Shown: in pieces, positions 19,758 to 36,543 of the stretch | How positions within the stretch are numbered: the stretch's first letter is position 1 | How the letters are laid out: every line of letters starts with the position of its first letter | Assembly (NCBI GenBank): GCA_047967505.1 | Contig: CM106538.1 | Reading direction: 5' to 3' (one strand) | Source of the DNA: Dipteris shenzhenensis | Taxonomy: Eukaryota | Length of the DNA: 64,000 nucleotides | Program-made: the position numbers and the translations under genes | Notes under the pieces: model-generated | Seen by the model: only the letters and a program-made list of their open reading frames with translations | The model's database searches: none | What the model was told of the DNA's origin: nothing

Positions 19758-22689
19758 ATGGCTATCAGAAGCGGGGAGAAGGTCATGATGATGGTGGGGA
19801 ATGAAGTGGTTGGAATTGGTGGAGTGTGTGCAATAGATTCGGAGGCCTACTGTAGTGGTGTGAAGATTGGGACAGAAAATGTATCGGTGATAGTGGAGAA
19901 GTCCATCAATAGTGAAATGCTCTTGCCATTTCCCACTATGGATGCAGTGCTTGTTGGTGAGGCAATTTGGAGCGTTGTCAAGTGGCCTGTGACCATGTTG
20001 CTGGTATAGATGAGTTGGTCAATGATCAAATGTTGAAAAGGGACGATCCAACATCAAAGAAAAGAAGGTACACTTTCATTAACAGGGTGCCTAAACAAAG
20101 AGAGCCTCCAACAGCAATGTACAAAATGTCACTAGATTCGGTGCAGCAGGTTTCTTCCATCAATTGTTGTGGGAGTAGGTGTTGCCAACATGCAGAGCGA
20201 GATCTCTTAATGAATCTAAGGAAGAACTTTTGGGGCAGCTCCTTGGAGTCTCGTACAAACTTTATATATGATGTGTTGTCAACGTCTTGGCATCATGACT
20301 ACACAAGGAGGATATGCTACAACTTCAAGATAAATGGTCGAGATGTCTGTTGTAGAGCATGGTATGAGATGCATGGAACTCCAAGGACATCATTTTATCG
20401 ATACAGGGAGCAATTTGAGAGTGGTGTGCAGCGATATGTGCATGGCAATTCAGGGATTATGAGGAGGAGCAGGGAGCACATAGGTATGGGAAGGGCTCTC
20501 ATTCAACACTTTGTGGATAATAGCACAGAGCATATGCCTCACAAGAGTAGAACCATGCAGGATGGTTCTAGAGAGACACAACAAGTGATACCTGAAGTGT
20601 ATAAGAAGATAGACATCCTACGTGAGGTCAACACTTCACTTAATCAACGTGGTTATCAGAGCCTATCCACATCCACATTTGGCAGGATTTTTGAAAATCA
20701 GACTTAAAAAATGTAGCCCTTGCTAAGACGAGTGAATTCTCTTAATGTAGCTTGTGCAACCGGATCAAGGCTCAATTGGCAGCCACAAAAAGTCAAGATG
20801 AGCGCAATTCGCTGATGGAAGAGAGAAAGATGCATATGATACAGCAACAAAGTTGTAGGAACTTATACTATGCATGGCATAGGTACTCCGAGATGGATCC
20901 AAAAAAGTATGTATGCATAATCCATGATAAGATGGACCAAAAAAAGACGGCAATTCCAAGACTTTGGGTGAGGTCCAAGGACACCGATTCTACATGGCAA
21001 TTACAGGTTTCACTCATTGGAATGATTACCCATGGGCATGGAAACGGTCATTATGGACACTTCACCCTCAATGGTTTGTGGCCATCTGATCCCAACATGA
21101 CGATTGGATCGCTCTCAATTTGTTTATGCAACCTCAAGAGGATGGATATGCATGACCTTAGAGACCTTGCTACCAATGGGATTCCTAGAAGCAATGCTCG
21201 CCTTTTGAATGCTCTATGTTCAAGAAACGCTTTGGACTCCCATTACAGTTCTAAAGGTGCACATGTTTCCACAAGTGGAGCTAGCTTGTCTGAAAATGTA
21301 GATGTCACGATCACAAATGCAAATCTAGAAACTGTATCGGAAAGTGACCCGAAGTCTGTCACGGAGGCCATGACAACTTCCATTGCAAGGGCTATAGACA
21401 CATGTGTGAATTTTTTTCCGTCAAATACAAGAGAAAACCCACCCTCTTTAGAGGGGAGTGTTGCTATTGAGCCACCATTCCAAAAGTTGCCAGAGAACTT
21501 GCTACTCTAACTAGATAATTGTGGGTCTGAGAACGAAAATAGATACTTGTTTGCATACCTTTCTCTTCTTGTAGCAAGGGGCATTTTCAAGACAGTTCAA
21601 TTGGGCTTCTTGATGGTAGGGCACACACATGAGGACATTGATGCAATGTTCAGTAGGTTTTCTGAGAGCTTGCGGGTGGGACAAACATTCACTTTCCCGC
21701 ATCTGATGGATACATTCAAAAAATGTACATCATCTTCACCGGCACCATTTGTTCTTACACGGGTTCCTAACTTCAAGGATTATGTAGATGGCTACCTATG
21801 TGATGGGCAAGAAATGCTAGTTGGACATGCAAAGCCATTACAATTTCGATTTTACATGCAAGGTGACATACCAATGATGGAGTACAAGGTGCATCCAAAA
21901 TCACCGAATTGGATGCCCATTGAAGGGGGAATTGAGCTATGGAAGAAAGACAATGAGGGTCGATCATTGTTGCCAACAGGTTGTCCGAATATACTGCCAA
22001 TGGCTGCATTTGTGAGAGATCACTTGCAAGTAATATCAACGATAAAGGATTACATTAAGTTTTGGGAGAAATGTGCAAGTGGAAAGAATGCATCCTATGA
22101 GTCCTACATTAGGCCAGTGATAGACTATTGGAAAACCATGATCGGTGAGCTCGAACAGGAAAACATCTCAGAGATAGGAGTGTACAGAAAGTTTTGGCCA
22201 AGAACACAATCTCCTGATGAGGAGGATGATATAGATGCTTGCATTAATGATTTCCAAGGCTATGAGGAATGGAATGATCACTATTGTGGGCCTCTAAAAG
22301 GTAAGCCGAGGGAAGAGTTTAGACCAATGGTGGATGTTAAGCAAGGTGACTTTGTCTTGGTGAGGCCATCAGATCCTATATACCCCATATGGCTTGGGGT
22401 TGCCATATCAAGTGCCGAGATGGATGCTGCTTCTCCTAATCTCAAGAAATTATTAATTCAGTATTGGGCACCATCAGTTAAGAGAAAGGGGCTCAGTGAT
22501 GTAGATGCCTATATTGATTGCTGGAACAAGTATTGGGCAGAGAATAGGTTGGATCCACAGGTATGGGAGTGTATTGATGCAATTGTCTGGTCATGGACAT
22601 CAAAATCCATAAATAGACCCAAGAAGATCAAGATTCCACAAAGCGTATGTATCAAAGCACAGGAGAGCTTGCTTGGTATCAGAGCATAG
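19758..22689 (+). pseudogene. DUF7869/Sola1-like DDD transposase (decayed) with N-terminal Tnp1/En-Spm-like module, Cys-rich region and C-terminal Tudor/SH3-like domain
   Basis: Motifs IIHDKMDQKKTAIP, L*LDNCGSENENRY and VQLGFLMVGHTHEDIDAMFS; CCGSRCC and VCCRAW; N-terminal V.V....LLPFP...VGEAI.SVVKWP. Broken into ORFs 19758, 19967, 20752 and 21547. Confidence 0.75.
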
Positions 22690-23219
22690 AAAATGGTGTC
22701 GATTTTCTCCCTCTTAATCTCCCAAACTTCCATTGTAAGGTGTGTTCTCATGTGATGTTTCTCAATTGTTGTTATCTTGTCAATGGGTATTTGCATATTA
22801 TTAATATGACAATTTTTCAGAAGCTGACCTTCACCACCAACTGCTTTGTTTCTAGTGGAACTCACTATGCATGGTGTTTGTTAACACCATCAACTGGTGT
22901 TTATTAATACCTCAAGTAAAATATACATGTTGTTCCTAGACGGTGTTTATTAACACCACCAAATACATGATTTTCAAACTCTGCCACAAATGCTTTGTTT
23001 CGGTTTTTATACGCAATGAACTGTTTCACAACCAATGAAGTTTTTCATAATCATTGGAATTCCAAATATTAGCTTATTCAATATTGGTAAAATTCCCACA
23101 ATCAATGGAAATTTTCCCAAATTTAATGAAGCCTTTCCCAATTTTAATGAAATCCACCCAATTTCAAAATTCCCAAAATGCAAATTTTGTCCCACTTTAT
23201 CTAATACTGTGTTAAATCC

Positions 23220-23935
23220 CTAAGTTCCCCTGGGCTTCCTAAGACGTACAATAAATTGCATGTCTATAGCGGTCACGGTGACCCTTTTCCTATGAATGGC
23301 AGCTAACTAGATGTAATCCATGAGGTCTACTAGTAGGTAGGCCTTAGATGCATGCTACAGCGCAAGCAAGGCATCTCTAGAAATACGCCAGGGAGCCTCC
23401 ACAACTCTGCGCCTAGAAAACCAAGACATTGGGTTAAGGTTGAGGTCCTGGATGACCTCGCGTACCACCCTTGCGAAGCTGGCCATCAGGATGAGCAGAT
23501 CAATGGACTTCTGAAACTTTCTGATCTCCTGAAGTGCCACTGTTCCTGGCTTGAATCTGTACCACCTCACTAGAGGAGGGCCTCATCCTGGATGTTGAGG
23601 GCCTCTTTGACCTGCACTTGGAGCTCTGGCACCTCTCCCCCGTTGGCGTGGACCCTGATTGTTTGTTCCTGCCTTGGTCCTCTGGTCTGTTCTTCGTTGT
23701 TCCTCTTCCACACACTCCTCCTCTGTGCTCTCGAAGTCATCCATCTCTATCATAGGATCTTCTTGTGCCTTCCTCTATCCCCCTTACTCCCTATCCGGCT
23801 TTTGGATTGGTAGTTTCTCCCTTCGGCGAGGATCATTGGGGGGAGAGGGGGGGGGCTATCACTCTCTGTCTCTGAGTCTGGAGGTGGGTCTGGCTATGCC
23901 AGTCTCTGTGGTGCCTTGATCTTGGGCCTGGCCAT
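23220..23935 (-). pseudogene. divergent histone H3 variant with CENH3-like features (~238 aa reconstructed, intronless; 6 C>T-type stops, 1 homopolymer frameshift)
   Basis: MARPKIKAP start; histone fold [39 protein letters not shown][19 aa][48 protein letters not shown] aligns with H3 [37 protein letters not shown]...ALQEA.EAYLV.LFEDTNLCAIHAKRVTI..KD.QL.RRIR. Confidence 0.9.
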
Positions 23936-34779: not shown

Positions 34780-35670
34780 AAATTCAAAAAAACATTTACT
34801 TATCATCAAACACTATTAAAATATGTGAATGAACAATATCTCACAAGGATCTTTGAAGAAAAAATGTGATCAAACTTGTCCTCCTCAATGGTCCCTCTTG
34901 TAATCCAAGATGCTGAAATTGATGGATTTTTTTCCACTACTAATTACATGCTTCCAAACAACTCCAAATCTATTTCTAACCATCTTCTATAAAAAAAACT
35001 CAATATATAGTAAGAGTGCATCTTTTAAAACAAAAAAATATTTCTTCCTCTTTAAATCATGTATTAAAAGAAAACAACAAAATTACCAAAACAAACGACA
35101 AATTAACTGCTTCTTCAAAGTTACATCATAAAATCTCATTATTTTCATTGTCTTGCATTGTTCTAAAGGTTTTTTCACCTGAATGTCCATGCAAGTTGCT
35201 CTGATAGACCCTGATTTGAGTTGAAAACTAAAAACATTCTACAACTACATGAATGAATAGTACTTGATTCTTGGAGCAAGATTCTTTGAAAGAAAAATGT
35301 GATCAAACTTGTCCCTCCCACTGGTCCCAAATGTATTCTAGGATTGATGAAGTTGATGGTTCTTGCATCAAAACAAATTATATGCTCCCAAACATCTTGA
35401 AATCTATTTCAAGCAATATTCTATAGAAAACCATTGATAGTAAGAGTGAAAAAGACTCATTTCTCATGGAATTTCTTACAAAACAAACAAAAATTTCAAT
35501 GTTTTCAAACCATGGAATAAAACAAAACAACACAACTACACAAAATGAACTAGGAACTAACTATCTCTTCAAAGTTACATCATTAACAAACAAATCTTGT
35601 CATAATCACTTTGTTGCATTGTTCCAAAGATTCTCTCTCCTGAACCTCCATACAAGCTGTTTGGATGGAC
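34780..35670. repeat. diverged ~435-bp tandem duplication
   Basis: CTTTGAA.GAAAAATGTGATCAAACTTGTCC and TCTTCAAAGTTACATCAT each occur twice, ~430-455 bp apart. Confidence 0.7.
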
Positions 35671-36543
35671 CCCAAACCTTCACAAATGGTTCAAAATCAT
35701 GCACCCTTAGAGATTGCAGCAAGGAAAGTAACCAGTATTGAGAGATGGGCAAAAGAAAGATTGATTCTCATGCATCAGCAACTGCTATGCTTGAAATTCC
35801 ATCTTCTTTGACCCTTTCTAAAAAAATCTCGTCCTATAGCTCCTTCTAAGATCCAAACATCTTGCATCATTCATGGCTTGCTTAGAACATTGATTGCCTT
35901 GTCTTCCTAAATGAAATGATTTCAGATCATGGGAGAATCTCAGATGAGAGAGGAAGTGGCGAGATTTGAAGGAGAAGCACCCAAAATAGAGAAAGAAGAA
36001 GGTAAATTGAATCTCATTCAAAAATTCTTGAACGTTTTGAAAGAATGAGTGAAATGGGAGGGAAACACAGGTAGAGAAGAGAAGTGATGAGATTTTGGCA
36101 TGAGAGTCCATCCCATGAGAGGGAGAATAGAGAAACAAGCTTCCCACTCAAGAGCCAATAGGAAATTTGAAAAGAGGGTTGGAGCAAAGAAAAATTCGAA
36201 ATGGTGCTAAAAAATGAGGGGGAAGCAAGAGGAATGAGGGAGAATGAAAGGAGTGTGGTAGTTGGATGGGAGGATTTGGTTTCAGGTCAAATGGTTCAAG
36301 TTTGGTTGAGAAACTAGATTTCTTAGTTTGGTTATAGTTAAAAAACGTGATGGGAGAGTTGAGACAGCTCCACCTCATTGTTTGGGCCATTGAATAAAGA
36401 AATAAAGAAGTCAGGCCACTTCCAATATTCTATTGCCCTCCACCAGCCAATATTATATTGGGTTTTATTCACCTTATTCTTCCATGTCACTAGCCCAAGG
36501 GCTCCCTTATAGAGCCCTTTTTGAGTCCAAATTTTTTGTAATG

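Follow-up and report, generated by a model that had tools for sequence, protein, structure and literature searches.

A stretch of 64,000 nucleotides from Dipteris shenzhenensis (GenBank assembly GCA_047967505.1, contig CM106538.1), referred to here as the window and numbered from its first letter, was found to contain, on the minus strand between 23221 and 27063, what is probably a dead two-gene DNA transposon, an interpretation to which we assign a probability of roughly 0.7. The first gene of this pair appears to encode a transposase with a fold of the RAG1/Transib type and the second an H3-like histone. A third decayed gene that lies tail to tail with the pair, termed Sola1-like in an initial annotation of the window and here named for its DUF7869 domain, would be separate from the transposon, and the block from 19758 to 36543 would consist of three or more nested elements rather than of one giant transposon.

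The transposase gene and its fold

The transposase gene (24371–27063, minus strand) is decayed and colinear with P0157, a full-length relative of 813 residues. Thus, the sequence from 27063 to 24476 corresponded to residues 6–793 of P0157 at 36–42% identity, with at least four frame changes, and the reading frame ended at 24371. The motifs KLDE, TDLKT, CPLC and GMERSH were retained in the window copy. An exhaustive phmmer search yielded 89 homologues of the transposase, most of them fragments, and a homologue search for longer proteins with a 315-residue open reading frame (ORF) yielded none. Residues conserved in the family were D379, D476, C496/C499, H729/H734 and E753 (P0157 numbering), and counterparts of all of these were present in the window copy. 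The acidic residues of P0157 are spaced 97 (D379 to D476) and 277 (D476 to E753) residues apart, those of RAG1 108 and 254.

The fold of the transposase was modeled with AlphaFold2 for P0157 and not for the decayed window copy, from 90 sequences, with a mean predicted local distance difference test (pLDDT) score of 71 and core values of 85–97. The best match of this model in a Foldseek search had an expectation (E) value of 8.4e-9, and the matches listed at E values of 0.001 or less (at least 48) were all chains of RAG1, amphioxus BbRAGL or HzTransib, followed by the P element and Hermes families at E values of about 0.01–0.02. Similar results were obtained by VIA-align, which is independent of Foldseek, in a comparison with 48,161 chains. 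In this comparison, RAG1 (chain 4wwx_E) gave a Z score of 17.1 with 370 residues aligned (model residues 307–753 versus chain residues 504–963) and a root-mean-square deviation of 4.3, BbRAGL gave a Z score of 15.9 and HzTransib a Z score of 13.0; the next family, represented by P element transposase, gave a Z score of 8.1. The final aligned pair of P0157 and RAG1, which is the sole residue equivalence given by the fold tools, placed E753 opposite chain residue 963, which we take to be next to the RAG1 catalytic residue E962. As far as fold is concerned, these findings with the model bear out the label RAG1-like of the initial annotation. The placement of the gene on the same strand as the H3-like gene was also confirmed, both being on the minus strand.

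The H3-like gene and its lineage

The H3-like gene (23221–23935, minus strand) was identified as a histone gene with an H3-type fold from its Pfam Histone match (E value of 4.8e-10) and from its identity to the H3-like protein of a metagenome locus, L003. It starts with an ATG at 23935 (MARPK...), continues through a long decayed tail and ends with a TAG stop at 23221–23223. The histone fold (23558–23235) is in a single frame and colinear with residues 65–172 of the L003 ORF, the two proteins being 51% identical over 109 residues. Decay of the gene was evident from three in-frame stops in 23235–23774, two of them within the fold and the third at 23583–23585, and from frame changes in the tail. 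The distance from the stop of the transposase gene to the start of the H3-like gene, previously given as about 330 bp, was not reproduced, the measured distance being 436 bp to the ATG at 23935 or 618 bp to an ATG at 23753.

The histone has been kept under purifying selection in the transposon family. Thus, ratios of nonsynonymous to synonymous substitution (dN/dS) were 0.21 for L003 and L002, 0.15 for L002 and L010 and 0.17 for L002 and the window copy, these being the three pairs in which dS was unsaturated; dS was saturated in the remaining three. On the sequences compared, the transposon-borne histone is also a separate H3 lineage. Eleven unnamed cluster representatives were 62–94% identical to the L003 histone, and canonical H3 proteins were at most 53% identical to it over two thirds of the query. 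A loop-1 insertion of approximately 14 residues was common to the proteins of the lineage, L002 and the window copy, and a C-terminal extension was common to the intact histones of the lineage; neither feature was present in canonical H3 rows.

Recurrence of the transposase-H3 pair

Metagenome contigs were scanned with an alignment of the transposase family, which gave 21 loci of 1.4–6.1 kb. Four of these (L002, L003, L010 and L019), which derive from two metagenome assemblies, had an H3-like ORF located 3' of the transposase ORF and in the same orientation, and the pair was present in three of the eight loci that have at least 900 bp of downstream sequence. Matches to Pfam Histone were noted for the H3-like ORFs of L002 (E value of 5.6e-26), where only the histone-fold part reads as a single ORF, of L003 (7.3e-34), which is whole and comprises 184 codons, and of L010 (3.1e-18); the H3-like ORF of L019 is partial, lies at the contig end and was detected by tblastn only. 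The transposase ORFs of L002 and L003 are open up to the contig start, and an uninterrupted transposase ORF of 845 residues was found in L004.

When a tree was built from the transposase core, without the row for L018, which was dropped for low coverage, the window copy grouped with P0157/L001 and L002/L003 with a support of 0.915. L010 and L019 were in a second clade, so the pair is present in two clades, and the transposase lineages that carry it share just 34–58% amino-acid identity. Thus, the arrangement of the transposase and H3-like genes, with respect to both order and strand, recurs in diverged copies. This recurrence in 4 of the 21 loci and in two clades, together with purifying selection on the histone, supports the earlier suggestion that the two genes form one mobile unit.

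The DUF7869 gene and the spacer

The decayed DUF7869 gene (19758–22691, plus strand), a putative transposase gene, has DUF7869 as its sole Pfam match (E value of 7.4e-34). It extends from an ATG at 19758 to a stop at 22689–22691 and is colinear with residues 6–1065 of P0001, a relative of 1069 residues, to which it is 57% identical, with a range of 43–58%. The reading frame changes twice and is interrupted by a TAA at 21508, and 408 bp are deleted at 19988–19991. The deletion, which removes approximately residues 82–220, was recognized because contigs from other runs (X1 and X4) carry 408–410 additional letters at this point. The claim that the DUF7869, H3-like and transposase genes are all decayed in the same way therefore holds in part; all three are broken, but they resemble each other only loosely, with different frame changes, stops and deletion.

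Among 13 relatives of the DUF7869 protein, invariant acidic residues were found in three blocks (IIHDKMD, QLDN and GHTHEDID), as would be expected of a DDE/DDD transposase. Sola1 transposons, from which the label in the initial annotation was taken, encode a DDD transposase and produce a 4-bp target duplication; neither ends nor a target duplication could be found for the DUF7869 gene. The protein Atlas contained no named relative of the DUF7869 protein, the only entry being an unnamed mollusc cluster with a score of 0.84, and a literature search for DUF7869 found no paper that uses this name. No relatives of this protein or of the RAG1-like transposase were present in the viral contigs searched. 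A distant relative (19–49% identity per segment, residues 276–741) was noted at 10001–11623 of L026, a 732-kb contig from a metagenome-assembled genome labelled Nitrospirales, and is either a bacterial relative of the eukaryotic DUF7869 family or a consequence of a misplaced contig.

A satellite of palindromic GGAGAATGGCAC..GTGCCATTCTCC units (18474–19757, repeat family D14) is located directly 5' of the DUF7869 gene. Its palindromic 26-mers occupy 18474–19418 and reach toward the gene, and its final units copy the 5' end of the gene including the ATG (19400–19530 resembles 19640–19790). Because these units repeat the start of the gene, the satellite belongs with the DUF7869 gene.

The two convergent units are separated by a spacer (22692–23220), and the stops of the DUF7869 and H3-like genes are exactly 530 bp apart, in agreement with the earlier estimate of about 530 bp. 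Comparisons with contigs from other runs (X1–X4) covered 32 of 107 pieces; these contigs are short, and regions left uncovered, for example most of the transposase gene in X1, carry no evidential weight. Contigs diverged from the window at 22789 and 22795, where the letters before these positions were unlike, and at 22827, where the letters behind were unlike, and one X1 contig stopped at 23213, 8 bp short of the H3-like stop. The X1 contigs that cover the DUF7869 gene with its 3' flank differed from the window by 1–2%, and the X1 contig that covers the H3 tail by approximately 10%. Among the pieces compared, no contig joined the DUF7869 gene to the H3-like gene or the transposase gene, and none spanned 23213–23575. 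The boundary between the DUF7869 element and the transposase-H3 unit is probably within 22789–23221.

Three copies of the palindromic 16-mer GGTGTTTATTAACACC occur within 85 bp of the spacer (22873–22957). With up to three mismatches allowed, eight strand matches to GGTGTTTATTAACACC were found in the window versus 0.5 expected. These copies could be candidate binding sites near an element end.

Proposed scheme and alternative interpretations

In the proposed scheme, the first gene of the transposon would encode a DDE-type transposase of about 810 residues with a RAG1/Transib-fold core, and the second, located a few hundred bases 3' on the same strand, would encode a transposon-specific H3 variant. 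If the transposase acts as those of Transib and RAG do, it would nick the ends of the element, form hairpins there and so excise the element for insertion at another site. The H3 variant might join host H4 in nucleosomes and alter chromatin at the element or at its target. Together with its upstream satellite, the DUF7869 gene would represent another element, placed tail to tail against the pair. A 7.5-kb element with terminal inverted repeats (TIRs) would have been inserted later, just upstream of the transposase gene, and the whole nest would sit inside a broken CACTA element.

Several observations weigh against this scheme. At the level of sequence, no homology of the transposase to RAG1 or Transib was detected: Pfam gave no match, including RAG1 or Transposase_21, in 12 proteins of the transposase family, and neither RAG1 nor Transib was found among PDB sequences by hmmsearch with the family profiles A2 and A7 or by phmmer with two ORFs of the window. 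The relationship to RAG1 is thus one of fold, the family being too far from RAG1 for detection with profile hidden Markov models, and superfamilies without solved structures may be nearer relatives than RAG1. Furthermore, five of the eight loci with long downstream flanks lacked a histone gene; L012 had no second ORF, and the other four had a different one (L004:3261-4884(-), L007:2807-4832(-), L016:3467-5347(-) and L013:1937-3094(+); 395–627 residues). This alternative ORF is convergent with the transposase gene in L004, L007 and L016, and a relative of it is on the same strand in L013. It had no Pfam match and is longest, at 627 residues, in L016, and its conserved C-terminal block is 56% identical between L007 and L016. 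Given the occurrence of either an H3-like or an alternative ORF beside the transposase, a second gene is common in the family, but its identity varies.

Two additional points of this kind concern the limits of the pair. In the window and in the short metagenome contigs, no TIRs, heptamer resembling that of a recombination signal sequence (RSS) or target-site duplication was found for the pair, and 11 loci on short contigs showed no flanking repeats. The window, where the copy is decayed and nested, contained no inverted-repeat partner for 36543, 22789 or 23213 or for the candidate left ends in 22760–22840 and 23140–23235. As no ends were defined, mobility of the pair is inferred from its recurrence. 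In addition, the spacer is crossed by contigs from other runs, X2 and X3 extending from the last 60 bases of the DUF7869 gene to 22900 and 22999 and the X1 contig noted above reaching 23213, so that the 3' flank of the pair itself is not separately identifiable.

The absence of a sequence-level match to RAG1 or Transib is in keeping with derivation of the transposase from a superfamily that lacks a solved structure (for example, CACTA/Mirage/Chapaev), RAG1 being merely the nearest solved fold. The element end CATTA, which is near the CACTA terminus, and the C-x2-C and H-x4-H motifs, which are common to CACTA/Mirage/Chapaev and Transib, may be viewed in the same way. We consider this derivation rather unlikely because the Z scores of 13–17 for RAG1-type chains, compared with 8.1 for the next family, extend over 290–370 residues or nearly the whole RAG1 core, because Transposase_21 was absent from the 12 family proteins and because the spacing of the acidic residues fits that of RAG1.

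Still less probable is a single large composite made up of the DUF7869 transposase, the H3-like and the RAG1-like genes, and perhaps the satellite, which would end on the right at 36543 and would either have lost its left end or have it beyond the window. As stated in the initial annotation, there is no LTR (long terminal repeat) or TIR between the three genes; no LTR or inverted-repeat pair was found between or around them, and their presence inside 7.4 kb without recognizable ends between them would be expected of a composite. Its proponents could also point to the X2 and X3 contigs, which cross the coding end of the DUF7869 gene, and to 36543 as a true end that cuts the TnpD gene of a CACTA element, the missing part of which was not found in 10813–19638. 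The trio did not, however, recur in the loci compared. Thus, a DUF7869 relative was present in none of the 21 transposase loci, and a transposase or histone in none of eight DUF7869 loci, though the relatives in the latter are distant. Moreover, intact full-length DUF7869 relatives occur on contigs of 4–5.6 kb, which have room for one gene and are too short to hold the pair as well. The loose contig ends at 22789, 22795 and 22827 also lie between the units, and X1 contigs covering the DUF7869 gene together with its 3' flank are 98–99% identical to the window, as compared with about 90% for the X1 contig covering the H3 tail. In view of these results, the wider proposal, in which the transposon (19758–36543) would also include the Sola-like gene and the satellite, is unsupported. 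The check suggested with it, synteny of the three genes in other copies, showed in these loci that the H3-transposase pair recurs and that the DUF7869 gene was alongside in none.

An immobile pair, i.e., a domesticated host transposase beside a histone variant with the window copy as a pseudogene in a transposon nest, would agree with the lack of ends or target duplications and with purifying selection on the histone but is highly improbable since 13 of the 21 loci are from one assembly, with many diverged copies, several of them with frame breaks, since the 89 homologues are mostly fragments, since the second gene varies between clades and since the window copy is decayed and located amid transposons.

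The nested element and CATTA-type ends

Upstream of the two-gene transposon, at a distance of about 80 bp from the transposase gene, is a nested non-autonomous TIR element (27142–34690) flanked by TA. The existence of this element, already recognized in the initial annotation, was verified by its matching terminal repeats, which have an exact 18-nt core at 27151–27168 and 34665–34682 with TA on both sides, and by an X4 contig that leaves the window sequence exactly at 27142. The element contains a 178-bp satellite (27518–28696) whose units each include a run of approximately six copies of the plant telomere-type heptamer CTAAACC, and a related array is present at 59574–60644 near the right edge of the window. 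It also contains a RING-finger-like ORF (29638–30285, minus strand; Pfam zf-RING_2, E value of 3.8e-4, under the cut-off), of which a copy that is 84% identical and in the opposite orientation occurs at 58014–58955, and an AT-rich 206-bp satellite (32636–33860) of about six units with a GC content of 18%. The copy at 58014–60644 was considered as proof that the TIR element belongs to a CATTA-ended family and was rejected, as this copy lacks the TIR.

A non-coding stretch (34691–36543, minus strand) of 1.85 kb separates the nested element from an element end at 36543, which reads CATTAC... on the minus strand. A second CATTA-type end (56404–56453, plus strand) cuts a Copia gag relic on its left. 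The similarity of these ends, reported earlier, was evident from a global alignment score of 32 over 50 nt, a value reached by none of 2000 shuffles (best score of 23), and, of the 139 CATTA starts that the window contains, these two gave the best non-self match, the second-best score being 21. MAFFT left the two ends out of register, and a degenerate pattern missed one of them because of an insertion or deletion. Since they are alike and each truncates the coding sequence of another transposon, they are true ends of one kind of element. Behind 56404, no second copy of the transposase or H3-like gene was present in the window, and 56404–58014 and 60644–64000 had no similarity to the rest of it. 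The CATTA end motif was found in none of the 29 metagenome loci with the transposase or DUF7869 genes. Thus, the position proposed earlier as the right end of the large unit does mark the end of an element, but nothing connects this end with the transposase-H3 pair or with the DUF7869 gene.

Surrounding transposons

The transposons of the window are of plant type and form a nest. The CACTA TnpD relic (36507–37806, minus strand) was identified from Pfam Transposase_21 and DUF4218 matches in the order found in CACTA (En/Spm) TnpD, the former weak (E value of 8.8e-4, under the Pfam cut-off) and the latter with an E value of 1.9e-13 over profile positions 2–75 of 114. The DUF4218 match stops at LKGF, at 36543, which bears out the earlier observation that TnpD is cut mid-motif at this position. 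The missing part of TnpD was sought in the 60 minus-strand ORFs of at least 35 residues in 10813–19638, among which no DUF4218 or DUF4216 match was found; these ORFs were 60 of the 116 in 4300–19800, those left out being 44 in the satellite at 4364–10880 and 12 in 18121–19257.

A young Copia element (38189–46974) with 258-bp LTRs that are 99% alike is directly adjoined at its LTR by an older Copia element (46975–52649) with LTRs that are 84.5% alike. A third Copia copy, 95% identical to the young element, is located at the left edge of the window (1–4402). The gag-pol sequences at 1–4402 and 42573–46975 were 95% identical across 4.4 kb; their interpretation as giant LTRs was rejected, since both are Copia internal regions. 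Satellites were noted at 4400–10900 and 18028–19400. A pair of direct repeats (15110–15468 and 17770–18130; 361 bp, 98.6% identity), 2.3 kb apart, resembles the LTRs of a small non-coding retroelement inside the satellite region.

Relation to known systems

Transib-like transposons are the source of RAG1, whose partner, RAG2, reads histone H3. The P0157 model has the same transposase core fold as the proteins of Transib and RAG-like (ProtoRAG/RAGL) elements (RAG1, BbRAGL and HzTransib), and its family has three conserved acidic residues at similar spacing together with C-x2-C and H-x4-H motifs, which may be the counterparts of the catalytic D, D and E and of the zinc-binding motifs of those proteins. 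As in RAGL, many copies of the transposase also carry a second gene; unlike RAGL, this gene is a same-strand H3 variant or another ORF and not a convergent RAG2-like gene. The family differs further from Transib and RAGL in the lack of a sequence match or Pfam RAG1 domain and in that RSS-like terminal repeats and a 5-bp target duplication were not found here.

A hAT element of Pyrenophora tritici-repentis has been reported to carry an H3-like gene, described as a transduplication (PMC3538342), and is likewise a DNA transposon with transposase and H3-like genes between its ends. That case involves a transposase of the hAT type and young, nearly identical copies within a single fungus, whereas the pair described here persists across transposase lineages of 34–58% identity with a histone that is of its own lineage. 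In plants, 39 Transib-like proteins were reported by Tao et al. (2022; PMC9435367), so the Transib superfamily, on that account, is not new to the green lineage; the words histone and accessory do not occur in the main text of that paper. Among the papers listed by a literature search that combined Transib with H3 or the histone fold, none described an element of the Transib type bearing a histone gene. The window pair is a decayed representative of a variant of the Transib/RAG-like kind that seems to be undescribed.

One practical consequence concerns annotation, as transposon-borne H3 copies may be mistaken for host histone variants, centromeric ones included. The uninterrupted L004 transposase of 845 residues and the L003 H3-like ORF would provide material for testing the action of such a partner. 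Tentatively, and with odds that we regard as somewhat below even, an old transposon lineage with a RAG1/Transib-type fold, present in the green lineage and in other protists, may have kept its own H3 variant, with its long divergent tail, enlarged loop 1 and C-terminal extension, as a working second gene. If so, the element would supply its own chromatin component and thereby escape silencing or mark sites of cutting or landing, and the H3 variant would stand to the transposase as RAG2, a reader of the H3 tail, stands to RAG1. For the origin of V(D)J recombination, the finding would mean that a distant branch of the RAG1 fold repeatedly travelled with its own H3 variant or another second gene and that transposases of the RAG1-fold type may have recruited chromatin-related partners more than once.

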